A stretch of DNA of 40,668 nucleotides from a virus (Duplodnaviria > Heunggongvirae > Uroviricota > Caudoviricetes), in IMG/VR virus record IMGVR_UViG_2534682060_000017, positions 1 through 40,668 of that record, one strand, 5' to 3'. The stretch's first letter is position 1. Each line of letters begins with the position of its first letter. Both the position numbers and the translations under genes were made by a program. The notes below the pieces were generated by a model. The model was not told the origin of the DNA, did not search any database, and was given only the letters and a program-made list of their open reading frames with translations. Below are positions 1,307 to 33,653 of this stretch, piece after piece.

Positions 1307-3778
1307 TTAAAAATCAACCGGATTCGGGATCAGTTTTTGCCAGATTGCTGAAACGTATTTTGCCTGGTAACGGGCGTCATCAAGTGCATTATGGCGCTCA
1401 CCTTCGAATGGAATAGCCGTTCTGGCATCGAAGTCTATGGCTTTCCCCAGCTCAACGATTGTGCGTACATCGCGATCGTTGTAGTAACGCCACGGGCAGG
1501 GGATCCCCTGCCGTTCGTATGAACGGCGCAAAATCGTGTTGTCGAAGTTGGCTCCATTTCCCCAGACCTGAACAAAAAATTCACCGGAGTTTTCGTCGAT
1601 AAATTCCCGCAATTGTAACAGTGCATCATCTAACGGGATTTCATCGGTCATAATGGCAGATTGCGCTTCGCGTGATTGCTTAAGCCACCATTTAATGGTG
1701 TCCCGATCAATGACTCCGCCAGCAGTTTCCAGATCGATAGTCTTACTAAATTCCGGTCCCATATCTCCGGTTTGCGGATCGAAAAATATTGCACCTATTG
1801 AGATAATCGGGGCATCAGGATTTTTTCCCATGGTTTCAAGGTCGATCATTAGATGGTCACACGTCCTGCTGGTGGATGTGATAACGTGATGACCGTTCAC
1901 CGTAATTAAGGGATCTGCCGTCTCGCCAGTTTCACTATCGCTGGCGTGATCCTGAGCGCTGCCAGCATTCTCTTTGTGTGGATGTTCAGCGCCTTCCATT
2001 TTCTCCGAATCGTCTTCCTGAACTTCAACCTGGTTCTTGTCATCGAATGTTTCCTGGTATGTTGCGTCGCCCATCACCGCACCACAATCAGGGCAGTTGC
2101 CGCCGCCGGTCTGACCGCAGGCGGTGCAGACTTTTTCCGCTTCCTGTTGCGCTACTGGCTCAGGTTGTTTCGTTTCTGGCTCGTTTTGTAACGCATTTGG
2201 GCTGTTTTGTTCCGCTTTCTGGTCGTTCTGTTCCGTTTCTTGCTGGTTCTGATTCACTGAATCGCGGGTTTCAATCCCCTTCACCCATTTCGGATCATTC
2301 GGGTCGCTAATCCCTGCAACAAATTCACCACGTGATACAGCAAGCAACTTATCGGCGTCAGGCTGGCTGATATTGGCTGCCTGCATAATTTTGTTTACTT
2401 CGTCAGCGGTAACTTTTACCGGCTCTGGTTGTGCGGTCGTGTCAGATGCACCAGTATTTTGTTGTGAACCTGAGTATGTACCGTTTTTACGGGCAAAATA
2501 TTCTTCTTTCGTGATTTCAGTAGCCCCTGCAGTCAGCGCCTTATTCAGACCAGAAAGTTTGTTTGCGCGACCATATTTTTCGCCATCCTTATCTGTGAAG
2601 AGGAAGTAGAACGGCCCCTCACGCTCTACAGATGGTTCGACTTCAACTTTGCATTCGGTTTTTTCGTTGTCCGGAATTGCCGTTTCCACTGCATCAGTTT
2701 CTGGTACTGGCGACGAGAGAGTATCAGTTGCGCTCTGATTTGTTCCTTCATCTTCAAACACGCCCTTTGTAGTCAGGTATTCAGTAATGTATTTGTTCAG
2801 TGCCACAGGGTCTTTGTGAATGTCGATCGGACGTTCACGGACAAGGCCAAAAATAGTCTGTCGGTCGTAGCGAAGGGCATCAGGCTGTTTGCGCATTGAT
2901 GCCGAGATACGCTTCCAGTCTTCGCGGTCGTTGTCGATAACTTCATTTTTTGCCCAGCGATGGATGCTGCCGTCAATGTTTCCGGCATCCACATCACCAG
3001 GCCAGAGAGCGTAGGCCAGTTCGTCATCCAGTGTTTTCCATGTCTGCTTGTATTCGCGATGAGTGGCAGCAATGACCGGGCTGATTTTTCCTGTTGAATT
3101 GTCAGTGTACTGTTGATTGGCTCTGGCGCGGGCGAGATCAACAACAGACGTGTATTTTCCGGTTTCCTTGCGTTCACCTTCGCGACGTTTTTTCCAGATG
3201 CGCATCTCTGCCTGAATTTCGGGCCATTTAGCACCAGGAATACATTTATGCTTAACCCACCCAATGGCGTGCAACTTAAGCTCCGGATACATGGCGTTAA
3301 CTTCTGGCATTTTCATCAACGCTTCAACGATATGTCCGTCGAATGTTGCCATGTCTTCCTGCAACAATTCCTGTGCGCTAATAACCATATCAACGGTGAT
3401 GTTTTCACATGTGTCGAACTTAACCAGGACCGCGTTCTGTACTTCAGGGGACAGCTTGTCAAAATTGACGTTCATCGGATCGGATTCTGGCTCGACCGGA
3501 ATAAAGGAAGCGGATTCCTCATCCCAGCAGTTTTCCTGCATATATTCGGTATCCCAGGAGTCGATGGCAGGGCGGGGCATGCCGGGTTTATCCTCGCAAA
3601 CAAGAAATTTATAAGCGCAGTCCTGAGCAGCCGGATATTGCTCCAGGAATTGCCAGGTAAATTTGGCTCGGGCGCGGCGTTCGTCGCCGGCTTCAATGGC
3701 AGTGGCTACAGCGACTGCACCTTCTTCCTTTATTGCCTGTTCGTCCGGAATGGCGGCGCAAATAAAGACTTTACTCAT
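1307..3778 (-). CDS. RecE-like exonuclease (exodeoxyribonuclease VIII-like) with C-terminal DEDDh/DnaQ-like 3'-5' exonuclease domain
   Basis: 823-aa ORF; C-terminus carries DLETMG ... HNALDDARY motifs typical of DEDDh exonucleases; central acidic low-complexity linker; GAGG about 10 nt upstream of ATG. Confidence 0.8.
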   Translation of the reverse strand: MSKVFICAAIPDEQAIKEEGAVAVATAIEAGDERRARAKFTWQFLEQYPAAQDCAYKFLVCEDKPGMPRPAIDSWDTEYMQENCWDEESASFIPVEPESDPMNVNFDKLSPEVQNAVLVKFDTCENITVDMVISAQELLQEDMATFDGHIVEALMKMPEVNAMYPELKLHAIGWVKHKCIPGAKWPEIQAEMRIWKKRREGERKETGKYTSVVDLARARANQQYTDNSTGKISPVIAATHREYKQTWKTLDDELAYALWPGDVDAGNIDGSIHRWAKNEVIDNDREDWKRISASMRKQPDALRYDRQTIFGLVRERPIDIHKDPVALNKYITEYLTTKGVFEDEGTNQSATDTLSSPVPETDAVETAIPDNEKTECKVEVEPSVEREGPFYFLFTDKDGEKYGRANKLSGLNKALTAGATEITKEEYFARKNGTYSGSQQNTGASDTTAQPEPVKVTADEVNKIMQAANISQPDADKLLAVSRGEFVAGISDPNDPKWVKGIETRDSVNQNQQETEQNDQKAEQNSPNALQNEPETKQPEPVAQQEAEKVCTACGQTGGGNCPDCGAVMGDATYQETFDDKNQVEVQEDDSEKMEGAEHPHKENAGSAQDHASDSETGETADPLITVNGHHVITSTSRTCDHLMIDLETMGKNPDAPIISIGAIFFDPQTGDMGPEFSKTIDLETAGGVIDRDTIKWWLKQSREAQSAIMTDEIPLDDALLQLREFIDENSGEFFVQVWGNGANFDNTILRRSYERQGIPCPWRYYNDRDVRTIVELGKAIDFDARTAIPFEGERHNALDDARYQAKYVSAIWQKLIPNPVDF

Positions 3779-9936: not shown

Positions 9937-10376
9937 AGAGACTAAAGAGCATTAATACATATGTGAATTGAAATTTTCATGGTACAGGGGAGAGCTAGCG
10001 TGGTTGTCCGCTTTGTGCTAGAGGTGGATATTGAGGGGGATCAGAGGATATTTAAAATGGATGGTCCGTTTTACAGATGTACTTACATAATCACTGCCTA
10101 GTTGCTTCCTTTATGCCACGCTTTTATGCCCCAAAGATAGGTGTTGATGATAGCGGTAGTCGGTTCGGTGTAATACAACTGCTCGGTTACCGTAATCACT
10201 AATGGTGCCTGAGATTGCTTCTACGTAAGGGGGTAAGGAGTTGGCTCTGAGCATGTCAGCAACGAGGCCATAGTCTGCTGACTTCGGGGGGGGCATTCAG
10301 GAGCAGAATGAACAGATGGGGCGGGATTGGCTAATAATATTACCCATGGCGAATGTTAGCGACATGATCATATTCA

Positions 10377-10412
10377 GGTCATCAGCGGTCATCAGCGGTC
10401 ATCCGTGTCATC
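10377..10412. repeat. Tandem direct repeats of a 10-bp unit (GGTCATCAGC x2, then GGTCATCCGT, GTCATC)
   Basis: Read directly in the sequence about 240 bp upstream of the 834-aa gene; possible iteron-like protein-binding site. Confidence 0.6.
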
Positions 10413-10654
10413 TAGGGCTCTATCCTGACAGAAAACTATCCGGCACACTGCGTGAAAAATCAGAGTAAATGATACCTTCAGAGCATACAGGAGAAAGTCG
10501 ACGCTTTTCAAACGTGTGCCTTAAGAATTAGAGGATAATATAACAAAAATGAAATTTAGGATAACATCAGACTTGACATAGCTAGGTTATTGTAACTAAA
10601 TGCGGTAAAACTAATCAGAAAAATTTTCGTTATTTTTTATAGAGAGAATAATCT

Positions 10655-13159
10655 ATGGAGAAAACATTTATTTCGGAAATATTATCAGCTTATCATCATT
10701 TACAATTAGAAAATGCAAATGAAGCAGCCACAAGACTAAAAGTGATAGATCGGGTATTAAAGGAAGTCTTGATGTGGACTGATAGTGATATAAAACCAGA
10801 AGAGCATGTGACTGAAGATGGTTTGACAACTTATGCTGATTATATACTAAAAACAGCTAATATTGCTCTTGTTGTTGAAGCTAAAAAGGCAGGGCCAAGC
10901 TTTAGTACAATTCCAGGAAAAAGAAAAATAAAGCTAAGTAATAGTTTTTTACAAAGTGATCTTGGTGAAGCGATAATACAAGCTAGAGATTACGCCAGGA
11001 AATTTGGTATAGATTATGCTGTCGCTACGAATGGAAATGTATGGGCATGTTTTGCAGCTCAGAGGCATGACAATGTCAAATTTAATGATTCAATAGCGCT
11101 TGTGTTCTGGTCGTTAGAAGATTGCTTAAATGATAATTATCAAGAATTCTATGATTTACTTAGTCGTGAAAATGTTATATCAGGAAGTCTAGAAACAGCA
11201 CTTTTAGGTCGCGTCGAAAATCAAATAGAATTTAGAAAATTAAGAAATTTTTATTCGCAACAAAACAGAACACAGACAAATAATCCAATATATCATTTGA
11301 TTGCTGATGAATTAAGGTTGGCTTTTTCTGATTCTATACTTTACTTGGATGAAGACTCCTTTGATAAATGTTATGTTTCAACACCAGAAACTATGAGATT
11401 CGATAGTAAAATTAGAATGAATATAGGTAGGCGTTCAAGTGTGCTGAATGGTGAAGTACTAAAAGGGCTTAATGATAAAGATACAAAAAGAATAGTTGAT
11501 AAGTTTCAGGTTAAAGGGAAGAAAAAAATAAAAGTCAGGAATGACAAACCTCTCGCGATCTTGTTACTTGGGACTGTAGGTGCAGGTAAAACAACATTTC
11601 TTCATTACATGAGAAAGGTTAGAATAAAAGAGTTTTTTTCAAATCAATGTGATATCTTGACGCCGCATTGGGTTCATATAGACTTTCTAGATAATCCATC
11701 AGAAAGTTCAATAGTCGATTTTATTTATAAATCAATTCTGGAATATATCAATAAGCATCCTGTTTTGAGTAATAAGGATTTTGTATTTGATGCATTTCGA
11801 GAAGATATTGAGGCGATAAAATCAGGACCTCTTTTTTTATTGAGTGAGGATCAAAAAAATACCAGAATCTCGGATTTTTTATATGAACAATATAAAAAGA
11901 TAAAACCTTATGTTGATAAAATAATAAGTCGCGTTACAAAAGAGACATCTTTTTTTCTTGTTATTGATAACGTTGATCAGATCGAGTTTGATGATATCCA
12001 GTCCCGGATATTTACCGAGTCATTTTCAATTTCCAGAGCGCTTTCATTAAATTTAGTACTTTCATTGAGGCAGTCTACATTTATCAAACATAAAAACTCA
12101 CCTGCTATAGATGCTTTCGATTTTGAAGTTATACAAATAGATCCACCGAGAATAAGTAGTGTGATTGCAAAACGCTTTGCACTAGTAAAGTATATGACAA
12201 GTAATAAAAGTGGAAATTTTATTGCAGAAAATGGCGCTAAAGTTGTATTGGATGATATATCACAATTAGTCGATATTATTAGTGGGTCTGTGCTGGGAAG
12301 TGAGATTGGAACACGTATTGAAGTTCTTGCTACGGATGATGTTCGATTAGCATTACGTATGACTCGTGAGTTCTTAGAAAGAGGGTATACGAGTCCAGGT
12401 AAAGCAGTACAAATTTTCAGAGAACAAGGAAGATATCTTCTTCCACGTCATGAGGCATTTAGAGCTATATTACTGGGTACTGAGTTGACTTATAGCGAGT
12501 CAACGTCGACTATTGCGAACCCGTTTGATTCGAATTTAGCTGTGACACAAATGCAATTATTGAGGCTGTACATTCTTAATGTTATCGTTTCGTATGCAAG
12601 CGATCCCGGATTCAGACAAATCGATGGTTCGGTAATAACTGAAAAGTTAAGGTTAATTGGTATAGGTGACTCTTTCACGCATCGAGTTCTCGTTGATTTA
12701 TGCAATAAAAGGTTTTTGTTCACCGTAAATCACGGAGATCCAACAGCTTCATCAAGTTTCATTCCTTCTCGGCTGGGGGGGTATATTGCAAAAGAACTTA
12801 TTAGTAATTTCACGTTTATAGAGTGTATGCTTTATGATACATATATTGCTGATGCTAAGGTATGGAGTAGATTAAGAGATCTGAGTGCTAGAATTGAGTC
12901 TGAAAGAGATGTAATAAAAAGGATCACAATGCGTGTAAGTCGAGCAAAAACTTTCTATTATCAAATGGAAAAACTTATTTCACCGCTTTGTTCCGAAGCT
13001 ATTATAAGAGGGTTGCCTTCACAATGGTGTTCTAACCCTCTTCAGGAGCGTTTACCTGAGTTAAGAAAAGAACTAAGAAGAGTTCTTAATTCTGCAAAAA
13101 AAACATATCAACCGAAACAGGATGATTCGTCTAAGTATTTCCTTGATGAAACGGTTTAA
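10655..13159 (+). CDS. Candidate anti-phage defence protein: N-terminal HsdR-N/Mrr-like PD-(D/E)xK nuclease domain fused to P-loop NTPase (Walker A GTVGAGKTT, Walker B FFLVIDNVD) and C-terminal helical domain
   Basis: 834-aa ORF, markedly AT-rich versus flanking phage genes; N-terminus ATRLKVIDRVL..LMW ... ADYIL ... VVEAKK fits the HsdR-N/Mrr D...ExK pattern; Walker A at aa 306-314, hhhhDN Walker B at about aa 433-439; flanked by AT-rich non-coding DNA. Confidence 0.85.
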   Translation: MEKTFISEILSAYHHLQLENANEAATRLKVIDRVLKEVLMWTDSDIKPEEHVTEDGLTTYADYILKTANIALVVEAKKAGPSFSTIPGKRKIKLSNSFLQSDLGEAIIQARDYARKFGIDYAVATNGNVWACFAAQRHDNVKFNDSIALVFWSLEDCLNDNYQEFYDLLSRENVISGSLETALLGRVENQIEFRKLRNFYSQQNRTQTNNPIYHLIADELRLAFSDSILYLDEDSFDKCYVSTPETMRFDSKIRMNIGRRSSVLNGEVLKGLNDKDTKRIVDKFQVKGKKKIKVRNDKPLAILLLGTVGAGKTTFLHYMRKVRIKEFFSNQCDILTPHWVHIDFLDNPSESSIVDFIYKSILEYINKHPVLSNKDFVFDAFREDIEAIKSGPLFLLSEDQKNTRISDFLYEQYKKIKPYVDKIISRVTKETSFFLVIDNVDQIEFDDIQSRIFTESFSISRALSLNLVLSLRQSTFIKHKNSPAIDAFDFEVIQIDPPRISSVIAKRFALVKYMTSNKSGNFIAENGAKVVLDDISQLVDIISGSVLGSEIGTRIEVLATDDVRLALRMTREFLERGYTSPGKAVQIFREQGRYLLPRHEAFRAILLGTELTYSESTSTIANPFDSNLAVTQMQLLRLYILNVIVSYASDPGFRQIDGSVITEKLRLIGIGDSFTHRVLVDLCNKRFLFTVNHGDPTASSSFIPSRLGGYIAKELISNFTFIECMLYDTYIADAKVWSRLRDLSARIESERDVIKRITMRVSRAKTFYYQMEKLISPLCSEAIIRGLPSQWCSNPLQERLPELRKELRRVLNSAKKTYQPKQDDSSKYFLDETV

Positions 13160-13162
13160 AAG

Positions 13163-13192
13163 ATGGGGCTAGTATGCCCCATGCTATTATCT
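13163..13192 (+). terminator. Hairpin immediately after the 834-aa gene stop
   Basis: ATGGGGC / GCCCCAT 7-bp stem with 6-nt loop followed by a U-rich stretch. Confidence 0.4.
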
Positions 13193-13879
13193 TACTAAAA
13201 TAAATTTGGAAGTGCTGTTACAATAGATAGAGGCTCATTGTCGAGTCTCTGTTTTAATTAGTTGGTTATTTTATGTTTATTTATTTCGATATCAGATAAA
13301 AAATCAATAAAGACAGCTTTGTTGCTAGTATTTAATTCTGTAGTAATATACGGATAGTTGTTTTCTGATATACCACATATCTTTAATTGTTGGTTTTTGT
13401 CTTAGTTGATTTAAATTCAATCAACCACTCCAGCAACCTAAATATTCCTCCAGTTCCAAACAATGAATATATGATCAGGAGCATAGCACTGCTCTTCATT
13501 AAAAATTTACACTTAGTTTTGAGAAAACTGCTTACGTTATCTTAACTCTGAATTTGTACATCTTAAGAAGTGCTAGTTATATTTAGTTGTTGTGTTCCAT
13601 GTTTTACAGAAAAATCAGAGAAACTGTACTCAATAGTTGCATTTCATCACTGATGAGACCGCCTTGTATTTATCAGGACTGGTGTACGTCCGATACAGAA
13701 AGTTGTCGTGCTGGTCCTCAAATGTGCGCTGGCTATTGCGGGTAATGGCAATTTATTGTCTTGCTATTGTCCTTATGGATCGCCTTTCTGATTGATTTTA
13801 TATTGGCGAGGTAACGGGAGTTAAGTACAATGGCTGCGGGTGCTTGAGGCTATCTGTCTCAGGCATGAACACCAAAGGC

Positions 13880-13960
13880 AGATAGAGAAAAGCCCCAGTT
13901 AACATTACGCGTCCTGCAAGACGCTTAACATTAATCTGAGGCTCAATCTATGAACGGCAA
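13880..13960 (-). ncRNA. Predicted Sok-like antisense RNA region (approximate)
   Basis: Inference from hok/sok architecture: antisense RNA normally overlaps the hok leader/upstream ORF start; possible minus-strand promoter TTGCCT-17-TAACCT near 13955-13985; boundaries uncertain. Confidence 0.25.
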
Positions 13961-14006
13961 ATCTAGGTTAGCCTCTTACGTGCCGAAAGGCAAGGAGAAG
14001 CAGGCT

Positions 14007-14162
14007 ATGAAGCAGCAAAAGGCGATGTTAATCGCCCTGATCGTCATCTGTTTAACCGTCATTGTGACGGCACTGGTAACGAGGAAAGACCTCTGCGAGG
14101 TACGAATCCGAACCGGCCAGACGGAGGTCGCTGTCTTCACAGCTTACGAACCTGAGGAGTAA
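14007..14162 (+). CDS. hok: Hok/Gef family type I toxin
   Basis: Product MKQQKAMLIALIVICLTVIVTALVTRKDLCEVRIRTGQTEVAVFTAYEPEE closely resembles Hok/Gef; in-frame upstream ATG at 13950 gives a mok-like extension; mRNA leader resembles the R1 hok leader. Confidence 0.8.
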   Translation: MKQQKAMLIALIVICLTVIVTALVTRKDLCEVRIRTGQTEVAVFTAYEPEE

Positions 14163-14230
14163 GAGACCTGGCGGGGGAGAAATCCCTCGCCACCTCTGAT
14201 GTGTCAGGCATCCTCAACGCACCCGCACTT

Positions 14231-14251
14231 AACCCGCTTCGGCGGGTTTTT
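14231..14251 (+). terminator. Rho-independent terminator (AACCCGC-TTCG-GCGGGTT + T-run)
   Basis: GC stem, tetraloop, 5 T; also serves as hok mRNA 3' end. Confidence 0.6.
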
Positions 14252-14377
14252 CGTCGCATTATGAGGTTGTAATTTTAGCTACCATTAGACTATCCTAAGG
14301 ATCTCAAACAGATCTATTTTGCATCAAATTTGGTGCATGGCTTTGCCAATAATCGGAAAACAAAAGGACTCATTAGT

Positions 14378-14557
14378 ATGAGCTGCCCACTCAAAAAACA
14401 CACGCGGTTGAGTATTCCGCCTCGCGATAAAAGCGTTGTGGCAGTCCCTCGCCCAGCGATTGATGAAAACTGCGCACATCGTGAACAAGTGAAAAATGCT
14501 TTTGATTTCGGTTTTTCTCGTTATGAGAAAGCCATGGAAGAACTTTCAAAAGTGTAA
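14378..14557 (+). CDS. Putative antitoxin-like small protein upstream of Doc-family toxin
   Basis: 59-aa ORF from ATG 14378 with AAGGA RBS; stop 18 nt before the Doc-like start; identity by position only. Confidence 0.4.
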   Translation: MSCPLKKHTRLSIPPRDKSVVAVPRPAIDENCAHREQVKNAFDFGFSRYEKAMEELSKV

Positions 14558-19030: not shown

Positions 19031-20116
19031 ATGGTTGATACTGTAAAAATATCCAGTTGTGAGTTAATCAACGCTGATTGCCTGGAATTTATCCAGACCT
19101 TACCGGAAAACTCTGTCGATCTGATAGTCACAGACCCGCCATACTTTAAAGTGAAGCCCGAGGGCTGGGATAACCAGTGGAAGGGCGACGATGATTACCT
19201 GAAATGGCTGGATCAGTGTCTGGCTCAGTTCTGGCGGGTACTGAAACCTGCCGGAAGTCTCTACCTGTTCTGTGGTCATCGCCTGGCATCTGACACCGAA
19301 ATCATGATGCGTGAGCGCTTTAATGTGCTGAACCACATTATCTGGGCGAAGCCATCCGGACGCTGGAACGGGTGCAACAAAGAAAGCCTGCGGGCGTATT
19401 TCCCGGCAACAGAGCGCATTCTGTTTGCCGAACATTATCAGGGGCCATACCAGCCAAAAAATGATGGCTATGCGGCAAAGGAGCGCGAGCTTAAACAACA
19501 CGTCATGGCCCCGCTGATTTCTTACTTCCGTGATGCGCGTGAATCACTGGGGATAACGTCCAAACAGATAGCGGAAGCCACCGGAAAGAAAAACATGGTG
19601 TCGCACTGGTTTGGTACCTGTCAGTGGCAGTTACCGAACGAAGCTGATTACAGAAAACTGCAGGCGCTGTTCGCGTGTGTTGCAGAAGAAAAGCACCAGC
19701 GTGGGGAGCTGGCAACGCCACACCAGCAACTGGTCAGCACATACAGTGAACTGAACCGGCAATATGCCAGTCTGCTTGAGGAATACAAATCTCTGCGGCG
19801 TTATTTTTCTGTATCGGCCGCCGTTCCTTATACGGATGTCTGGACGCATAAGCCCGTACAGTATTATCCGGGTAAGCATCCCTGCGAAAAACCGGCGGAT
19901 ATGTTGCGTCAGATAATTTCTGCCAGCAGTCGTCCGGGGGATGTGGTTGCGGATTTTTTTATGGGATCGGGGGCAACAATAAAAGCAGCAATGGGATTGG
20001 GGCGTCGCACGATTGGGGTTGAACTTGAGTCCGGGCGTTTTGAACAAACAGTTGGTGAAATATTGGTGCTGAACGATAAATTGCGAAATGCACAATTAGA
20101 TAAGAACAGGAGCTAA
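19031..20116 (+). CDS. Orphan DNA methyltransferase (DPPY motif; N6-adenine/N4-cytosine beta class)
   Basis: 361-aa ORF with catalytic motif IV DLIVTDPPY near the N-terminus and SAM-binding FMGSGAT near the C-terminus; no adjacent restriction endonuclease gene. Confidence 0.85.
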   Translation: MVDTVKISSCELINADCLEFIQTLPENSVDLIVTDPPYFKVKPEGWDNQWKGDDDYLKWLDQCLAQFWRVLKPAGSLYLFCGHRLASDTEIMMRERFNVLNHIIWAKPSGRWNGCNKESLRAYFPATERILFAEHYQGPYQPKNDGYAAKERELKQHVMAPLISYFRDARESLGITSKQIAEATGKKNMVSHWFGTCQWQLPNEADYRKLQALFACVAEEKHQRGELATPHQQLVSTYSELNRQYASLLEEYKSLRRYFSVSAAVPYTDVWTHKPVQYYPGKHPCEKPADMLRQIISASSRPGDVVADFFMGSGATIKAAMGLGRRTIGVELESGRFEQTVGEILVLNDKLRNAQLDKNRS

Positions 20117-25444: not shown

Positions 25445-27544
25445 ATGGGTTTTTCATCAGCCCGAAATTTGGGAAGGGACATATCGGCAGGATTTTCCCC
25501 ACCACGTCGCATGCCGATTTCGGAGGCTGTTAAAAAATTCATGCGTGTTCCCAAGGGGGCTGGTAACTCGGTGCCATGGGATCCTGAACTGACACCCTAC
25601 ATCATTGAGCCCATGAACTGCCTGGCATCGCGTGAATACGATGCGGTGATTTTTGTTGGTCCTGCGCGAACAGGGAAGACCATTGGTCTGATCGATGGAT
25701 GGATTGTCTATACCATCGTTTGCGATCCTTCGGACATGCTCGTTGTGCAGATGACCGAAGATAAGGCCCGCGAGCATTCGAAAAAGCGCCTCGACAGAAC
25801 GTTCAGAAGCAGTGCGGCGGTAAAGAAAAGAATGAGTCCACGTCGTAACGACAATAATGTCCATGATAAGACGTTCAGGGATGGCTCGTTCCTTAAAATT
25901 GGTTGGCCCTCGGTCAACATTATGTCGTCGTCGGATTACCGGTTTGTCGCCTTAACCGATTACGACCGTTTTCCGGAGAATATCGACAGCGAGGGTGATG
26001 GTTTCTCCCTGGCCTCAAAACGTACCACCACATTTATGTCCGCCGGGATGACTCTGGTGGAGAGCTCGCCGGGACGTGACATCTGCGACAGCAAATGGCG
26101 ACGTAAGTCGCCTCATGAAGCGCCACCGACGACTGGTATTCTTTCCCTTTACAATCGTGGTGACCGCCGCCGCTGGTACTGGCCATGTCCGCACTGCGGT
26201 GAATATTTTCAGCCAGCTATGGATGCCATGACCGGCTACCGTAATGAACCGGATCCCTTTAAAGCCAGTGAGGCGGCGTATCTACTTTGCCCGCACTGCA
26301 GCGGCATTATCACTGCGGAGAAAAAGCGTGAGCTCAATAGTGCAGGAGTCTGGTTGCGTGAAGGTCAGGTCATTGATCGTAACGGCAACGTTTCCGGTGA
26401 ACCGCGCCGCTCCCGTATCGCCAGTTTCTGGATGGAAGGGCCAGCTGCTGCGTATCAGACCTGGGCGCAACTGGTTTACAAATTACTGACTGCAGAACAG
26501 GAGTATGAAGCGACAGGAAGCGAAGAAACACTCAGGGCGGTTATCAACACCGACTGGGGATTGCCTTATCTTCCTCGTGCCAGCATGGAGCAACGAAAAA
26601 GTGAACTGCTTGAGCAGCGGGCAGAGCCAGTTCCTTCCCGCAGTGTGCCGGATGGCGTTAATTTCCTTGTGGCGACAGTGGATGTGCAGGCGGGACGTCA
26701 TCGCCGTTTTGTGGTTCAGGTAACGGGCTATGGCAGCCGTGGCGAACGCTGGATTATTGATCGTTACAACATCACGCAGTCATTGCGCAGTGACTGCGAC
26801 GGGGAGAGCCAGCGAATTGATCCGGCCAGCTATCCGGAAGACTGGGATGTCCTGCTGACGGATGTTTTTCATAAAAGCTGGCCGCTGGCCTCCGATCCTT
26901 CTCAACAAATGCGACTGATGGCAATGGCGGTGGACTCCGGCGGTGAAGACGGGGTCACTGATAATGCCTATAAATTCTGGCGTCGTTGCCGTCGTGATGG
27001 CCTTGGTAAACGTATTTACCTGTTTAAGGGCGACAGCATCCGGCGCGCAAAACTGATCAGCCGTACATTCCCTGATAACACCGGACGAACGGGCCGCCGG
27101 GCGCAGGCCGCAGGTGATGTGCCGCTCTGGCTTCTTCAGACGGATGCCCTGAAAGACCGGGTGAATAACGCGTTATGGCGTGACTCGCCAGGTCCAGGCT
27201 ATGTGCATTTCCCTGACTGGCTGGGGAGCTGGTTTTACGACGAACTGACGTATGAAGAGCGGAGCAGTGACGGGAAATGGAGTAAGCCGGGTCGCGGTGC
27301 CAACGAAGCTTTTGACCTGATGGTGTATGCCGAGGCTCTGGTCATTCTGCATGGATACGAAAAGATCCGCTGGCCGGATGCACCGGAGTGGGCGAGCCGG
27401 GAAACCTGGCTGGAGTGTGTCCAGGACAGTACCGAACCGTCATCCTCACCGGAACCGGTATCCACGCCTGTTAAAAAACAAAAACGGAAGAAAACAGTAA
27501 CTGACGATGTTAACCCCTGGCTGACTTCCGGAGGATGGTTATGA
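25445..27544 (+). CDS. Terminase large subunit (lambda gpA-like)
   Basis: 699-aa ORF with AGGAGG RBS; size and position match gpA-family terminases; N-terminal GPARTGKT Walker A-like motif. Confidence 0.9.
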   Translation: MGFSSARNLGRDISAGFSPPRRMPISEAVKKFMRVPKGAGNSVPWDPELTPYIIEPMNCLASREYDAVIFVGPARTGKTIGLIDGWIVYTIVCDPSDMLVVQMTEDKAREHSKKRLDRTFRSSAAVKKRMSPRRNDNNVHDKTFRDGSFLKIGWPSVNIMSSSDYRFVALTDYDRFPENIDSEGDGFSLASKRTTTFMSAGMTLVESSPGRDICDSKWRRKSPHEAPPTTGILSLYNRGDRRRWYWPCPHCGEYFQPAMDAMTGYRNEPDPFKASEAAYLLCPHCSGIITAEKKRELNSAGVWLREGQVIDRNGNVSGEPRRSRIASFWMEGPAAAYQTWAQLVYKLLTAEQEYEATGSEETLRAVINTDWGLPYLPRASMEQRKSELLEQRAEPVPSRSVPDGVNFLVATVDVQAGRHRRFVVQVTGYGSRGERWIIDRYNITQSLRSDCDGESQRIDPASYPEDWDVLLTDVFHKSWPLASDPSQQMRLMAMAVDSGGEDGVTDNAYKFWRRCRRDGLGKRIYLFKGDSIRRAKLISRTFPDNTGRTGRRAQAAGDVPLWLLQTDALKDRVNNALWRDSPGPGYVHFPDWLGSWFYDELTYEERSSDGKWSKPGRGANEAFDLMVYAEALVILHGYEKIRWPDAPEWASRETWLECVQDSTEPSSSPEPVSTPVKKQKRKKTVTDDVNPWLTSGGWL

Positions 27545-27753
27545 ACCAGAATGATATCGAAGCCATGATTCAGCGTTATATGGAAGCTGAAATGGCGGTG
27601 CTGGACGGAAAATCCGTCACCTTTAATGGTCAGCAGATGACCATGGAAAACTTATCTGAGATCCGGCAGGGACGGCAGGAGTGGGAGCGCCGCCTTGCGG
27701 CTCTGATTACACGACGACGGGGGCATCCCGGGTACCGGCTGGCGAGGTTCTGA
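27541..27753 (+). CDS. Head-tail joining protein (gpW-like)
   Basis: 70-aa product between terminase and portal; ends ..RRRGHPGYRLARF, similar to lambda gpW C-terminus; ATGA overlap with portal start. Confidence 0.7.
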   Translation: MNQNDIEAMIQRYMEAEMAVLDGKSVTFNGQQMTMENLSEIRQGRQEWERRLAALITRRRGHPGYRLARF

Positions 27754-29261
27754 TGGCAATTCTTGATGATGTGATTGGCGTTTTTTCACCAGGATGGAAA
27801 GCGGCAAGGCTGCGTTCCCGTGCGGTGATCCAGGCTTATGAGGCCGTAAAAACGACGCGGACACACAAAGCCCGACGGGAGAACCGAACTGCCGACCAGT
27901 TAAGCCAGTACGGGGCCGTGTCGTTACGTGAGCAGGCCCGTTACCTTGATAACAACCACGATCTGGTTATTGGTGTATTTGACAAGCTGGAAGAACGGGT
28001 GGTGGGGAAAAACGGGATTATTGTCGAGCCACATCCGGTATTACGCAATGGGGCCATTGCCCGTGACCTGGCTGCGGAGATTCGCACCCGATGGAGTGAA
28101 TGGTCTGTCAGCCCGGAAGTCACCGGGCAGTTTACCCGTCCGATGCTGGAACGTCTGATGCTTCGTACCTGGCTGCGCGATGGTGAGGTGTTTGCCCAGA
28201 TGGTTTCCGGGCGCATAAATAGCCTGACGCCTTCTGCCGGTGTTCATTTCTGGCTGGAGGCGCTCGAGCCGGACTTTATTCCCATGACCAGTGATGAGAG
28301 CAACAGGCTGAATCAGGGCGTGTTTGTTGATGACTGGGGGCGTCCCGAAAAATATCTGGTGTATAAAAGCCGTCCCGTATCCGGGCGGCAGATGGAAACC
28401 AAAGAAGTGGATGCAGAGCGAATGCTGCATCTTAAATTTGTTCGCCGTCTGCACCAGATGCGCGGGACGTCTTTATTGTCCGGTGTGCTGATCCGCCTCA
28501 GTGCCCTGAAAGAGTATGAAGATTCTGAGCTGACTGCAGCAAGGATCGCCGCTGCTCTGGGGATGTACATCCGCAAAGGCGACGGGCAGAGCTATGAAAC
28601 GGATGGTAATGGCAGCAAGGAGAATGAACGCGAGCTTACCATTCAGCCTGGCATTATTTACGACGATCTGAAACCCGGCGAAGAAATCGGAATGGTGAAG
28701 TCGGATCGCCCCAATCCTAACCTTGAAACTTTTCGTAATGGTCAGTTGCGTGCCGTGGCGGCGGGCAGTCGTCTGAGTTTTTCCAGTACGGCACGCAACT
28801 ATAACGGCACTTACAGCGCCCAGCGTCAGGAGCTGGTTGAATCCACTGATGGCTACCTGATCCTGCAGGACTGGTTTATTGGTGCCGTCACCCGTCCGAT
28901 GTACCGTGCCTGGCTGAAACAGGCTGTGGCATCCGGTGTTATCAGGCTACCCCGCGATCTTGACCGTTCTTCACTGTATACCGCGGTGTATTCCGGACCG
29001 GTGATGCCGTGGATTGACCCTGTTAAGGAGGCTGAGGCCTGGAAAATCCAGATTCGTGGTGGAGCGGCGACAGAATCAGACTGGGTACGTGCTGGTGGTC
29101 GTAATCCGGATGATGTCAAACGTCGGCGCAAGGCCGAAATTGATGAAAACCGCAAGCTGGATCTGGTATTTGATACCGATCCGGCCAGTGATAAAGGAGG
29201 CAGCAGTGCCGCAACGAAACGACAGGAGCCGCAGCACACCGACGACCAGTCCGAAGAATAA
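27753..29261 (+). CDS. Portal protein (lambda gpB-like)
   Basis: 502-aa ORF after W; size, position and acidic C-terminus consistent with lambda-type portal. Confidence 0.9.
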   Translation: MAILDDVIGVFSPGWKAARLRSRAVIQAYEAVKTTRTHKARRENRTADQLSQYGAVSLREQARYLDNNHDLVIGVFDKLEERVVGKNGIIVEPHPVLRNGAIARDLAAEIRTRWSEWSVSPEVTGQFTRPMLERLMLRTWLRDGEVFAQMVSGRINSLTPSAGVHFWLEALEPDFIPMTSDESNRLNQGVFVDDWGRPEKYLVYKSRPVSGRQMETKEVDAERMLHLKFVRRLHQMRGTSLLSGVLIRLSALKEYEDSELTAARIAAALGMYIRKGDGQSYETDGNGSKENERELTIQPGIIYDDLKPGEEIGMVKSDRPNPNLETFRNGQLRAVAAGSRLSFSSTARNYNGTYSAQRQELVESTDGYLILQDWFIGAVTRPMYRAWLKQAVASGVIRLPRDLDRSSLYTAVYSGPVMPWIDPVKEAEAWKIQIRGGAATESDWVRAGGRNPDDVKRRRKAEIDENRKLDLVFDTDPASDKGGSSAATKRQEPQHTDDQSEE

Positions 29262-29274
29262 TTCCTGGTTCAGG

Positions 29275-31233
29275 ATGCAGGCTGGTCACCAGAGTGACGC
29301 GGATATTTATATTTATGACGAGATTGGTTTCTGGGGTGTTACAGCGAAGCAGTTTATCAGTGATCTGAATGCACTGGGCGATATCACCCACATTAATCTC
29401 CATATTAATTCACCGGGTGGCGATGTCTTTGAAGGCATCGCCATTTTTAATGCGCTGAAAACACATGGTGCGTCCATTACCGTTTATGTCGACGGTGTGG
29501 CGGCGTCAATGGCGTCGGTCATTGCGATGGTGGGAAACCCGGTCATTATGCCGGAAAACACCTTCATGATGATTCATAAACCATTTGGCTTTACGGGCGG
29601 TGATGCGGAGGACATGCGCACCTATGCCGACCTGCTCGATAAAGTTGAGGCGGTTCTGTTACCCGCTTATGCACAGAAAACCGGGAAAACCACCGATGAA
29701 ATTGCTGCCATGCTGGCGGATGAGACCTGGATGTCCGGTGCCGAATGTCTGGCACAGGGATTTGCTGATCAGGTAACGCCAGCCGTTAAGGCAATGGCAT
29801 GTATTCAGTCAAAACGTACAGAGGAATTTAAAAAGATGCCGGAATCCATTCGAAACATGATTACTCCGCCACGCAACAGTGCTCCACGCGTACAGGATGA
29901 TGAACCTGCAGTCTCCCGGACGCCAGTGCAGGCAGCAGCACCCGTGGTGGATGAAAACAGTATCCGTGCGCAGGTACTGGCAGAGCAAAAAGCGCGTGTA
30001 AACGGTATTAATGATCTGTTTGCCATGTTTGGCGGGCGCTATCAGACGCTGCAGGCTCAGTGTCTTGCCGATCCTGAATGTTCGCTGGAGCAGGCCCGCG
30101 AAAAGTTGTTGAACGAGATGGGGCGCGAGTCCACGCCATCCAATAAAAATACCCCGGCTCATATTTATGCCGGTAACGGTAATTTTGTGGGGGACGGGAT
30201 CCGCCAGGCGCTGATGGCGCGTGCCGGATTTGAAAAAACCGAACGTGATAATGTCTACAACGGGATGACCCTGCGTGAATATGCCCGTATGTCACTGACT
30301 GAACGGGGTATTGGGGTTTCCGGTTATAACCCGATGCAGATGGTCGGTGCGGCGTTCACACACAGTACGTCTGACTTCGGTAATATTCTGCTGGATGTTG
30401 CGAACAAAGCCATTCTGCAGGGCTGGGAAGATGCCCCTGAAACCTATGAACAGTGGACGCGGAAAGGTCAGTTGTCTGATTTTAAAATTGCCCATCGTGT
30501 GGGTATGGGGGGCTTCAGTGCTCTGCGTCAGGTGCGTGAAGGGGCGGAATATAAATACGTCACCACCGGAGATAAACAGGCCACTATTGCACTGGCGACC
30601 TATGGTGAGCTGTTCAGTATCACCCGTCAGGCCATTATCAATGATGATCTGAATATGCTGACCGATGTCCCGATGAAACTGGGCCGTGCGGCGAAATCCA
30701 CTATTGCCGATCTGGTTTATGCCATTCTGACGTCTAACCCGAAAATCTCCACAGATAATGTAAGTCTGTTCGATAAAGCGAAACATGCAAACGTACTGGA
30801 GAGCGCTGCAATGGACGTGGCATCGCTGGATAAAGCCCGCCAGTTGATGCGCGTTCAGAAAGAGGGGGAGCGTCATCTGAATATTCGTCCTGCGTTCGTA
30901 CTGGTACCGACGGCGATGGAGTCTGTTGCTAACCAGGTCATTCACTCCTCAAGTGTCAAGGGGGCTGACATTAACGCCGGTATTATTAACCCGGTGAAAG
31001 ATTTTGCGACCGTTATTGCAGAGCCTCGTCTTGATGATAACAGCCAGACCACCTTCTACCTGGCTGCGTCAAAAGGCTCCGATACGATTGAAGTGGCTTA
31101 TCTCAACGGTGTGGATACGCCATATATTGATCAGATGGAGGGCTTCAGTGTGGATGGCGTGACAACGAAAGTGCGTATTGACGCCGGTGTCGCGCCAGTT
31201 GATCACCGCGGTCTGGTGAAATGTACGGCGTAA
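29275..31233 (+). CDS. Fused prohead protease (ClpP/S49-like) - scaffold linker - major capsid protein
   Basis: N-terminal region IYIYDEIGFWG...INSPGGDV...ASMASVIAM matches ClpP-like serine protease; C-terminal 300+ aa capsid-like; one continuous frame; strong terminator after stop. Confidence 0.8.
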   Translation: MQAGHQSDADIYIYDEIGFWGVTAKQFISDLNALGDITHINLHINSPGGDVFEGIAIFNALKTHGASITVYVDGVAASMASVIAMVGNPVIMPENTFMMIHKPFGFTGGDAEDMRTYADLLDKVEAVLLPAYAQKTGKTTDEIAAMLADETWMSGAECLAQGFADQVTPAVKAMACIQSKRTEEFKKMPESIRNMITPPRNSAPRVQDDEPAVSRTPVQAAAPVVDENSIRAQVLAEQKARVNGINDLFAMFGGRYQTLQAQCLADPECSLEQAREKLLNEMGRESTPSNKNTPAHIYAGNGNFVGDGIRQALMARAGFEKTERDNVYNGMTLREYARMSLTERGIGVSGYNPMQMVGAAFTHSTSDFGNILLDVANKAILQGWEDAPETYEQWTRKGQLSDFKIAHRVGMGGFSALRQVREGAEYKYVTTGDKQATIALATYGELFSITRQAIINDDLNMLTDVPMKLGRAAKSTIADLVYAILTSNPKISTDNVSLFDKAKHANVLESAAMDVASLDKARQLMRVQKEGERHLNIRPAFVLVPTAMESVANQVIHSSSVKGADINAGIINPVKDFATVIAEPRLDDNSQTTFYLAASKGSDTIEVAYLNGVDTPYIDQMEGFSVDGVTTKVRIDAGVAPVDHRGLVKCTA

Positions 31234-31256
31234 ACGTCGCAGACAACAACTCTGAT

Positions 31257-31277
31257 GGCCCGTAAGGGCTTTTTTTG
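31257..31277 (+). terminator. Rho-independent terminator after capsid gene
   Basis: GCCC-GTAA-GGGC followed by T7. Confidence 0.55.
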
Positions 31278-31319
31278 TACCTGAAATCAGCCCCTGAACG
31301 GGGCTGTGCGGAGACAGTT

Positions 31320-31643
31320 ATGGCAAAGAATTTTGTAGAAGAAGGAAAAACGGTGGCGATTGTTGCCAGTGCAGCCATCAGCAGCGGAGATCTGGTGCAG
31401 GTGGGTGATGTTTTTGCGGTGGCGCTGACCGATATTCCACAGGGTGAAACAGGCGACGGCCTGACCGAAGGTGTGTTTATGCTGCCTAAGCTGAAAACGG
31501 ATGACATGAAAACGGGTAAGAAGGTTTATCTGAAGTCCGGAAAAGTTCAGCTGACTAACAGCGGCTCTGATCCGCTGGTCGGGGTTGTCTGGGCAGATGC
31601 CGGAACCAGTGCAGAAGAAGTGCCGGTAAAACTCAATGTCTGA
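31320..31643 (+). CDS. DUF2190-like head protein (decoration/stabilisation candidate)
   Basis: 107-aa ORF with GGAGA RBS in the Fi-equivalent position after the capsid gene. Confidence 0.5.
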   Translation: MAKNFVEEGKTVAIVASAAISSGDLVQVGDVFAVALTDIPQGETGDGLTEGVFMLPKLKTDDMKTGKKVYLKSGKVQLTNSGSDPLVGVVWADAGTSAEEVPVKLNV

Positions 31644-31911
31644 TCCCTTTTCCCGGCTGGCAGCGCGTATGGATGCGATCACGGTCAGAAAGATGGGAAA
31701 GACAGCCTCGATTAATGATGTCGATATGACTGTGATCCCGGGAGAAACACTGGCAGAGCTGAATGCTCTGTCCGGACCTGCGGTATCTCTGGTGGTGTTT
31801 TCTTCGGGATACCGCCCACGGCGCGGGGATCGCGTTGTTTATGACAGACAACAATGGACGGTCACACGGCATGAACGCTTTAACGGTAAGCCAATGATCT
31901 TTATTGAGTAA
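31636..31911 (+). CDS. Head-tail connector protein (lambda FII-like)
   Basis: 91-aa ORF overlapping upstream stop; pattern incl. RRGD resembles lambda FII; position before Z. Confidence 0.6.
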   Translation: MSDPFSRLAARMDAITVRKMGKTASINDVDMTVIPGETLAELNALSGPAVSLVVFSSGYRPRRGDRVVYDRQQWTVTRHERFNGKPMIFIE

Positions 31912-31922
31912 AGAGGTGTGGG

Positions 31923-32501
31923 ATGAAGGGGCTTGAGAATGCCATCCGCAATCTGAACAGCCTTGATACCCGTATGGTGCCACAGGCCAGCGCATGGGCG
32001 ATAAACCGTGTGGCACAGAAAGCGGTCTCGGTTGCCACCCGGCAGGTTGCCGGGAATACCGTTGCGGGAGATAACCAGGTGAAAGGGATCCCCCTGAAAC
32101 TGGTACGTCAGCGTGTCCGGGTGTTTAAAGCCAGTCCGTCAGGAAAAATGACGGCCAGGATCCGCGTTAACCGGGGCAATCTGCCCGCCATTAAGCTGGG
32201 GACAGCCCGGGTCAGACTGACCCGGCGTGGTGGAAAACTGCAGTACCGTGGCAGTGTGCTGAAGGTGGGTAAATATCTTTTCCGGGATGCGTTTATTCAG
32301 CAACTGGCGAATGGTCGCTGGCATGTGATGCGGCGTATTGATGGCAAAAATCGTTACCCCATTGATGTGGTGAAAATCCCGCTGTCCGGACCGCTGACAC
32401 AGGCATTTGAAGATGCCCGCGACCGCATCATTGCTGCAGAAATGCCGAAACAGCTGGGGTATGCACTGAAACAACAACTGAGGTTATGGCTGACCCGATG
32501 A
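31923..32501 (+). CDS. Z: Minor tail protein Z
   Basis: 192 aa, same length as lambda gpZ; strong similarity by recall (..NGRWHVMRRIDGKNRYPIDVVKIP..). Confidence 0.85.
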   Translation: MKGLENAIRNLNSLDTRMVPQASAWAINRVAQKAVSVATRQVAGNTVAGDNQVKGIPLKLVRQRVRVFKASPSGKMTARIRVNRGNLPAIKLGTARVRLTRRGGKLQYRGSVLKVGKYLFRDAFIQQLANGRWHVMRRIDGKNRYPIDVVKIPLSGPLTQAFEDARDRIIAAEMPKQLGYALKQQLRLWLTR

Positions 32502-32899
32502 ACCGACATACACAAATCCGCCAGGTCGTACTGGCACGCCTTCGGGAACAGTGTGGAGACAGCGCCACGTTTTTTGACGGGCTTCCGGCATTTGTTGATG
32601 CGCAGGAACTGCCTGCCGTGGCGGTGTGGCTGAGTGATGCTCAGTACACCGGAAAAATGACGGATGAAGATGACTGGCAGGCTGTTCTGCATATTGCTGT
32701 CTTCATCCGGGCACAGGCACCGGATTCAGAGCTGGATATGTGGATGGAGAGCACCATTTTCCCGGCCCTGAATGATGTACCGGCACTTTCCGGACTCATC
32801 GACACCCTGATCCCACTCGGTTTTAACTATCAACGTGATAATGAGATGGCCACCTGGGCGATGGCGGAAATCACGTACCAGATCACGTACACGAATTAA
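32498..32899 (+). CDS. U: Tail terminator protein U
   Basis: Start overlaps Z stop (ATGA); product aligns with lambda gpU (..ATFFDG.P..VD..ELPAVAVWLSDAQYTG.. PDSELDMWMES..). Confidence 0.85.
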   Translation: MNRHTQIRQVVLARLREQCGDSATFFDGLPAFVDAQELPAVAVWLSDAQYTGKMTDEDDWQAVLHIAVFIRAQAPDSELDMWMESTIFPALNDVPALSGLIDTLIPLGFNYQRDNEMATWAMAEITYQITYTN

Positions 32900-32909
32900 G
32901 GAGGTGGTA

Positions 32910-33653
32910 ATGACCACACCAAATCCACTGGCAAAAACGAAAGGTGCGGGAACGACGTTCTGGATGTATACCGGCAAGGGCGATGCGTTTGCGAACCCTT
33001 TATCGGACACTGACTGGCTGCGTCTTGCGATGGTGAAGGATCTGCAACCTGGCGAAATGACCGCTGATGCAGAAGATGACACTTATCTCGATGATGAAGA
33101 TGCAGACTGGAAAACGACAACCCAGGGGCAGAAATCCGTTGGTGATACTTCGGCGACGCTGGCCTGGCGTCCGGGTGACAGCGGGCAGAAAAAACTGGTT
33201 CAGTTGTTCGACTCCGGTGAAGTCTGCGCGTTTCGTATCAAATATCCCAACGGTACTGTTGATGTTTTCCGTGGCTGGCTGAGTTCACTGGGTAAAACCA
33301 TTGCCTCAAAAGACGTGATGACCCGCACCGTGAAAATCAGCGGTGTGGGGCGTCCATATCTGGCAGAGGAGGGCACTGAAACCGTGGGCGTTACCGGGCT
33401 GACGGTGGCACCGGCATCCGCCAGTGTCAATGTGGGAGCAACCACCACGCTGACCTTTACAGTAAAACCTGACGGAGCCAGTGACAAAGCGATCAGTGTG
33501 CATTCGACAGATCCACAGACAGCCACTGTGACCCTGAACGGACTTGTGGCCACGGTGAAAGGCGTGAAGCAGGGCAGTGTCAGCATTGTGGGCATGACTT
33601 CTGACGGCGAGTTTGTGGCAGTGGCTACGGTGGCTGTCAGCGCCGCAGGTTAA
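32910..33653 (+). CDS. V: Major tail protein V with C-terminal Ig-like domain
   Basis: AAGGAGG RBS; strong similarity to lambda gpV (KGAGTT.W.Y.G.GD..ANPLSD.DW.RLA.VKDL.PGE.TA...DD.YLDDEDADW..). Confidence 0.9.
   Translation: MTTPNPLAKTKGAGTTFWMYTGKGDAFANPLSDTDWLRLAMVKDLQPGEMTADAEDDTYLDDEDADWKTTTQGQKSVGDTSATLAWRPGDSGQKKLVQLFDSGEVCAFRIKYPNGTVDVFRGWLSSLGKTIASKDVMTRTVKISGVGRPYLAEEGTETVGVTGLTVAPASASVNVGATTTLTFTVKPDGASDKAISVHSTDPQTATVTLNGLVATVKGVKQGSVSIVGMTSDGEFVAVATVAVSAAG

Follow-up and report, generated by a model that had tools for sequence, protein, structure and literature searches.

A probable Gifsy-2-type head-shell polyprotein gene joining a ClpP-like protease, a scaffold-like module and the major capsid protein in one reading frame

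Introduction

In phage HK97, the shell protein gp5 carries an N-terminal assembly domain (delta) that is cut off inside the procapsid by the phage protease. In Mu, the protease is encoded by a separate gene. [quoted passage not shown] (Virology 402:355, 2010), with a T=7 geometry. To judge from papers citing that work, the Gifsy-2 protein is reported to lose its N-terminal protease and its central domain, and the T=7 capsid that results is decorated. The protease and coat genes of Gifsy-2 have been described as fused (PMC12315714), and a fusion of ClpP and gpT of about 700 aa was found in Paracoccus, where 34% of the siphovirus prophages carry it (PMC6536676).

Here, we analysed a 40,668-nucleotide stretch of DNA (hereafter the window) from a tailed-phage record (Caudoviricetes; IMGVR_UViG_2534682060_000017). 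The initial annotation of the window had read one 652-aa open reading frame as a polyprotein with a ClpP/S49-like protease domain, a scaffold-like linker and a capsid domain. We consider it highly probable (about 0.9) that the product of this gene is a head-shell polyprotein from a lambdoid E. coli prophage of the Gifsy-2/cdtI/mEp460 type, a four-part chain that would process itself in the sequence of events proposed below.

Results

Reading frame and start codon

On the + strand of the window, an open frame runs from an ATG at 29275 to a stop codon at 31231-31233 (652 aa), within a stop-free stretch that begins at 29005. No frameshift or internal stop between the protease and capsid domains was found from 29005 to 31230 or in four diverged orthologues; a single uninterrupted frame spans both domains in the window, in Gifsy-2, in CP-1639, in Klebsiella phage Kp4865-4 and in Pseudomonas phage vB_Pae_CF165a, with amino-acid identities as low as 56%. 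The fused frame of the initial annotation was thus confirmed in five sequences, and the frameshift that it had named as able to split the gene in two is absent from all of them. The start codon that it had chosen fared less well.

The true start is probably the GTG at 29206, located 69 nt upstream of ATG 29275. A CDS that begins there encodes 675 aa, contains ATG 29275 as an internal codon and shares 56 nt with the 3' end of the portal gene. We prefer this GTG because it is preceded by a perfect AAGGAGG motif, because it is equivalent to the start of the CDS annotated by PGAP (2,028 nt), because protein conservation continues upstream of ATG 29275, and because the methionine encoded by ATG 29275 aligns with isoleucine in both Gifsy-2 and Pseudomonas phage vB_Pae_CF165a. 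The conserved upstream stretch is KNNSWFRM, where the pattern SW[FY]x[MI]xA, encoded between 29206 and 29275, is kept across all five orthologues examined. An equivalent arrangement (AAGGAGG or AGAGGAGG, a 5-nt spacer and GTG) occurs in CP-1639 and Kp4865-4, and a 675-aa database protein (P0003) is 100% identical to the product of GTG 29206. Active-site residues, structural segments and cleavage candidates are given below in the 675-aa numbering, and the features of the locus are collected in Table 1.

Table 1. Features of the fusion gene and its surroundings in the window
Feature	Position	Strand	Details
Lambda-family portal gene, directly upstream	27753..29261	+	PF05136, E 6.9e-82; start from PGAP-equivalent annotation, coordinates transferred
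Shine-Dalgarno sequence AAGGAGG	29194..29200	+	5 nt 5' of GTG 29206
Full fusion CDS, probable	29206..31233	+	675 aa, 73.5 kDa; ClpP-like prohead protease / scaffold-like / major capsid protein
ClpP (MEROPS S14) protease domain	29269..29778	+	Residues 22-191
Oxyanion-hole SPGG		+	Residues 69-72; G71 and G72 invariant in 94 relatives
Catalytic Ser101 codon (AASMAS)	29506..29508	+	From alignment to ClpP structures; invariant in 94 relatives
His124 (MIHKP)	29575-29577	+	Catalytic partner; invariant in 94 relatives
Acidic Glu173	29722-29724	+	Aligns with the ClpP catalytic Asp
Conserved post-protease segment	29779..29877	+	Residues 192-224; two short helices; EEFKKMPESIRNMI; holds in-frame ATG 29836
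Hypervariable, indel-rich disordered Pro/Ala/Gln/Thr linker	29878..29949	+	Residues 225-248; pLDDT < 50
Three-helix scaffold-like module	29950..30126	+	Residues 249-307; helices 250-273, 280-288 and 294-307
Second partly disordered segment	30127..30183	+	Residues 308-326; ESTPSNKNTPAHIYAGNGN; pLDDT < 50 at 316-324
Major capsid protein region, HK97 fold	30184..31230	+	Residues 327-675
Phage_capsid_4 core (Pfam)	30334-31221	+	Residues 377-672
Terminator-like hairpin GGCCC-GUAA-GGGC(U) followed by seven T	31257..31276	+	Between fusion gene and decoration gene
Second hairpin CAGCCCC-TGAAC-GGGGCTG, without T-run	31288..31306	+	Just 5' of the decoration gene GGAGA (31310-31314)
Head decoration (cement) protein gene	31320..31643	+	Starts with ATG; 107 aa; DUF2190 / Phage_cement_2

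Family assignment and predicted structure

Over its whole length, the protein matched the curated NCBIfam model NF045540 (ClpP-like prohead protease/major capsid protein fusion protein) with 984.7 bits (cutoff 475), and the alignment pairs residues 9-651 with positions 2-651 of the 652 in the profile. The sister model NF045541 scored 401 bits, under its cutoff of 525, and the protein is therefore of type 1. PHROG 133 was matched with 1183.8 bits. At the level of individual domains, Pfam models placed CLP_protease at the N-terminus (residues 23-168 in the 652-aa numbering, E = 6.5e-36) and Phage_capsid_4 at the C-terminus (residues 354-649 in the 652-aa numbering, E = 2e-54) of the same frame, together with a weaker Mu-like gpT match. 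HMM annotation had been suggested as a check of the polyprotein reading, and that reading agrees with both the domain order and the curated family.

The architecture of the chain was modelled with AlphaFold. An alignment of 94 diverse representatives gave a model with a mean pLDDT of 88, while a run with 18 close homologues (75-96% identity) reached a mean pLDDT of 34.7 and was discarded. The model begins with an alpha/beta domain (residues 22-191), which is followed by two short helices (202-219). A first disordered stretch (225-245) leads to a three-helix module (250-307), and a second one (316-324) to a large alpha/beta domain (327-675). This last domain is predicted to adopt the HK97 fold, which the initial annotation had suggested looking for in the C-terminal region.

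The protease domain and its active site

ClpP usually assembles 14 subunits into a barrel and acts together with an ATPase. The N-terminal domain of the fusion protein has the ClpP fold and, with 216 bits, exceeds the 120-bit cutoff of the NCBIfam "head maturation protease, ClpP-related" model. It retains the Ser-His-acid triad and the oxyanion-hole glycines, the third triad residue being Glu instead of Asp. Among 94 relatives with 33-59% identity, the columns of G71, G72, S101 and H124 are invariant. Column 173 holds Glu in 83/94 and Asp in 6/94; because the position is thus Glu or Asp in 89/94 relatives, the acidic character of the ClpP triad is kept. The earlier description of the domain as ClpP/S49-like can be narrowed to ClpP (family S14): a protease of the S49 or lambda C type was ruled out by the SppA model, which gave 22.3 bits with a cutoff of 155. 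Among the parts of the window examined, no Clp ATPase gene was noticed.

The segments between protease and capsid

The segment that directly follows the protease domain is conserved, Pro212 being kept in 87/94 relatives. In contrast, the linker at residues 225-248 shares 23-27% identity with its orthologues, with gaps. Beyond it, the three-helix module reaches block pLDDT values of 89-97 in the AlphaFold model and 47-83% identity to orthologues. From its position and its likeness to the central domain of Gifsy-2, we infer a scaffolding role for this module (residues 249-307). The adjoining segment at 308-326, which carries an indel relative to Gifsy-2, may form the upstream end of a candidate maturation-cleavage zone, with candidate sites spanning residues ~308-377.

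Neighbouring genes and intergenic hairpins

The gene downstream of the fusion, noted earlier as DUF2190-like, was confirmed as such and can be named further: its product matched PF09956 (E = 2.4e-20) and the PHROG 122 "head decoration" family (E = 5.1e-47), and PGAP names it a DUF2190 family protein. The window also contains terminase gpA domains, the lambda-family portal and homologues of gpZ, gpU, gpV (tail tube) and gpG. A lambda-like tail had been recognised before, and these homologues bear it out, the packaging genes being lambda-like as well; the mosaicism that the initial annotation had found notable is less so, as the same combination of head and lambda-like tail is normal for this phage group, being shared by Gifsy-2 and cdtI.

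Two hairpins lie between the fusion gene and the decoration gene. The first, which had been described as a strong terminator, does combine a hairpin with a T-run at a conserved position. "Strong" is too much, as the stem has 5 bp and the centroid energy is -8.8 kcal/mol, a value that, taken alone, is indistinguishable from that of shuffled sequence. The position of this hairpin is kept in Gifsy-2, CP-1639, Kp4865-4 and cdtI, with a longer GC stem in the Pseudomonas phage, and a function of the hairpin is supported because its position and T-run are conserved in every orthologue examined. Four enterobacterial orthologues preserve the second hairpin as a structure; the sequence of its stem differs in Gifsy-2. 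A search of the intergenic hairpins against Rfam matched no family.

Distribution

DNA matches to the gene were found in 2,125 of 5,426 complete E. coli genomes (39%), mostly at >= 99% identity, and PGAP uses the fusion name for them; 2,019 complete E. coli genomes carry the gene at a coverage of at least 80%. A search of a library of 1.84 billion cluster representatives returned 6,813 matches at E <= 1e-30. Among the best 150 of these 6,813, 136 proteins had a length of 600 aa or more, and these 136, with few exceptions, aligned from about residue 7 to 649 at only 36-60% identity. Since such end-to-end matches dominate the best 150 at this level of divergence, the fused form represents an old and very widespread family. 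The architecture had been called known but less common. It is indeed known and curated, but the gene is matched in 39% of complete E. coli genomes, being among the commonest E. coli prophage head genes, and the fused form heads the 1.84-billion search.

The names in phage records are more varied. At least seven are in use for this gene, among them "head maturation protease", "putative protease/scaffold protein", "putative protease", "Major head protein" and "head-tail preconnector protein Nu3".

Discussion

A proposed maturation pathway

The pathway that we propose for the polyprotein draws on general knowledge of HK97-type assembly and on what citing papers state about Gifsy-2. The sequence analysis shows which domains the chain has, that its catalytic residues are intact and its frame is single, and that gene and gene order correspond to Gifsy-2; the cleavage itself, where it falls, its action in cis or in trans and a T=7 shell are inferred. 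The C-terminal domains would close round the lambda-type portal to form a procapsid in which the protease and scaffold-like parts point inward, comparable to the delta domain of HK97. The high local concentration reached inside could then switch on the protease, which would cut ~310-375 N-terminal residues from every subunit and subsequently digest itself. The mature capsid protein left behind would have a mass of about 32-40 kDa, depending on where between ~308 and 377 the cleavage point falls. DNA packaging would be followed by expansion of the shell, which the DUF2190 decoration protein from the adjoining gene may then cement. By our rough estimate, 415 inward N-terminal regions would fill 27-53% of the cavity of a T=7 procapsid (radii and T=7 assumed), which is crowded but feasible. 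Searching the literature on close relatives for virion proteomics or for a cleavage site that had been mapped yielded nothing useful.

Alternative explanations

Not every chain need carry its own protease. If ATG 29836 were also used as a start, a protease-less scaffold-capsid protein of ~50 kDa would be made beside the full-length chain, comparable to the lambda C/Nu3 pair, and the ratio of protease to capsid would drop below 1. The initial annotation had mentioned an internal start as a possible way of separating the two domains, and the enterobacterial homologues do keep this Met. In the window, GAGGA precedes the codon (Met211, or Met188 of the 652-aa version) by a 10-nt A/T-rich spacer; 15 enterobacterial homologues have Met211 with the same neighbouring residues throughout, and each of the five orthologues examined, the Pseudomonas phage among them, keeps (G/C)AGGA(A/G) and the ATG. 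The crowding estimated above for 415 full N-terminal regions also speaks for it. Support does not extend to the whole family, however: only 5/94 diverse relatives have Met in this column, where most have Val, Ala or Ile. The spacer exceeds the optimum, and the purine-rich bases are explained by protein constraint because they also encode a conserved (E/Q)E. Synonymous sites near the ATG show 2.2 distinct codons per column, equal to background (five sequences, low power). On balance, we regard additional use of ATG 29836 as unlikely. If it did occur, translation would set the dose of protease per procapsid in the enterobacterial branch, and the head module would stand functionally between lambda, with its nested C/Nu3, and HK97, with its delta-capsid fusion.

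Two further explanations deny the chain its self-processing or its very existence, and both are considerably less probable. The ClpP-like domain might be dead, or never removed, and serve merely as structural or scaffolding mass, cleavage being left to a host protease. The Glu in place of Asp as third triad residue points that way, but Ser, His and the oxyanion-hole Gly-Gly, invariant at 33-59% identity, would be unexpected in a dead enzyme, and the score with the head maturation protease model lies well above its cutoff; we consider this explanation very improbable. Least credible of all is that two once separate genes of a defective prophage were joined by a frameshift in sequencing or by the loss of a stop codon. 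Nothing supports this directly, even if the database entries P0006, P0033 and P0061, which join the gene to its neighbours, show that assembly or annotation artefacts do occur at this locus. The same architecture is present in the 2,019 E. coli genomes and in phage records such as cdtI, mEp460, Ayreon and Tritos. It recurs in hundreds of 50%-identity clusters and in orthologues that share as little as 56% identity, and protein-level conservation extends over every part of the frame. Conservation across genomes, orthologues and clusters effectively refutes an artefactual fusion. The self-processing head-shell polyprotein, made as a single chain, probably from GTG 29206, remains our preferred explanation.

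The value of this assignment as a discovery is small, as the fusion is already covered by a curated NCBI model with its product name and the Gifsy-2 orthologue has been studied experimentally. Its practical value lies in annotation: several of the record names mask the identity of the major capsid protein, and two start codons are in use.

Comparison with known systems

Compared with lambda, the fusion gene occupies the place of C/Nu3/D/E, with the portal gene on one side and the head-tail joining genes on the other; in both, the shell is decorated and protease and scaffold are nested in one frame. In contrast to the ClpP-like domain described here, lambda C belongs to S49 (SppA-type), and E and D are separate genes of other families. 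Neither the fusion protein nor the decoration protein matched the Pfam families of lambda gpE and gpD at E <= 0.01. With the SppA score far below its cutoff and a decoration protein of the Phage_cement_2 family, the locus is not a lambda C/Nu3/D/E head module.

HK97 shares with the fusion protein a shell protein of HK97 fold with an N-terminal assembly domain, and the proposed mechanism is analogous. Its gp4 protease, however, is encoded by a separate gene and belongs to the S78/U35 herpesvirus-like family, not to ClpP. The HK97 shell is held by covalent crosslinks instead of a decoration protein, whereas in the window the protease is part of the capsid chain and a cement gene adjoins. The Mu-like gpT capsid structures PDB 8rkc and 8rkx have the gpT-type HK97 fold in common with the C-terminal region, along with a detectable sequence signal; their chains of 302-304 aa correspond roughly to the capsid domain alone, without the protease domain.

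A close relative is the Gifsy-2 tripartite capsid gene STM1034.3n (NC_010393, 22471-24561), which shares the three-part layout. The two fusion proteins are 70% identical over their full length (663 aligned positions), with 86% identity in the capsid domain, 63% in the protease and 54% in the scaffold-like part; the linker differs in both length and sequence. The Gifsy-2 protein starts with ATG and has a longer N-terminal extension (696 aa versus 675 aa). Its decoration protein homologue is 61% identical, and its gene neighbours match those of the window: a lambda-type terminase, a small head-tail protein, a lambda-family portal, the DUF2190 decoration protein and a lambda-like tail. A conserved hairpin with a T-run likewise lies 3' of the Gifsy-2 fusion gene. 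Full-length similarity and conserved neighbours thus place the locus among head modules of the Gifsy-2 type. Nearer still are cdtI, mEp460, Ayreon, Tritos, HannyBb, phi458 and the E2348/69 prophage, with 98.4-99.6% nucleotide identity over the whole gene. These carry effectively the same gene as the window, and the cdtI/mEp460 group differs from it only in annotation, including the start used (652 or 675 aa).

Mosaicism within the fused head gene

Identity to the orthologues of Gifsy-2 and CP-1639 varies along the fused gene (29206-31233), whose single chain joins a ClpP-like protease, a scaffold-like helical module and the major capsid protein. The capsid domain is closer to that of the Salmonella phage Gifsy-2 (86% identity) than to that of CP-1639 (70%), whereas the order is reversed for the protease (63% versus 87%, respectively) and for the helical module (54% versus 83%). 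Moreover, database homologues such as P0083 carry the protease type of the window joined to the other capsid type. The fused gene is internally mosaic, and this implies recombination between its domains.

The gene carries at least seven different names across public phage records. Some refer to the protease ("head maturation protease", "putative protease/scaffold protein", "head-tail preconnector protease C", "putative protease"); others are "head-tail preconnector protein Nu3", "Major head protein" and "Major Capsid Protein". Several of these names conceal its identity as the capsid protein.

Cargo and other prophage genes

The low-GC island (see table below) was found in full in only 8 of the 5,426 complete E. 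coli genomes, where its genes adjoin hokD and are annotated as hypothetical proteins; it looks like rare prophage cargo. Its 834-aa ORF gave only a marginal PADLOC match, covering 48 residues, to a methyl-directed restriction enzyme model (E = 2.9e-4), and the cargo may be a defence gene. Two further genes, encoding an exonuclease-domain protein and a DNA methyltransferase, are listed in the table.

Additional features of the window
Feature	Coordinates	Strand	Properties
822-aa protein, C-terminal Rv2179c-like 3'-5' exonuclease domain	1307-3778	-	E = 1.6e-67; prophage early region
Low-GC island	10000-14500		31-40% GC versus about 50% in flanks
834-aa ORF in low-GC island	10655-13159	+	No Pfam match
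N6/N4 DNA methyltransferase gene	19031-20116	+	E = 1.5e-42; further along from the exonuclease-domain gene
Hairpin CAGCCCC-TGAAC-GGGGCTG	31288-31306		No T-run; downstream of the terminator-like hairpin and upstream of the decoration gene ribosome-binding site
91-aa ORF	31636-31911	+	Pfam PF13856, E = 6.2e-17; after the decoration gene

Signals and annotation around the head genes

Scanning of positions 27000-33000 revealed no sigma-70 promoter-like sites, compared with 4.9 ± 2.0 in shuffled sequence, consistent with a late operon that is transcribed from a single promoter far upstream. Terminator-like patterns were enriched in the same interval (15 versus 5.6), the majority of them lying within coding sequence.

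In Pfam, the family matched by the 91-aa ORF bears the name "Gifsy-2" and the description "ATP-binding sugar transporter from pro-phage". This label looks misleading, since the description poorly suits a small protein whose gene occupies the head-tail joining position in a phage late operon.

The hairpin at 31288-31306, for which no matching family was found in Rfam, could have a role in mRNA stability or in translation of the decoration protein. It occupies the same place in CP-1639 and in the Klebsiella phage Kp4865-4. Gifsy-2 has a hairpin at the equivalent place with another stem sequence (CCGGCACG-GCG-TGCCGG), and therefore it is the structure, not the sequence, that is kept.
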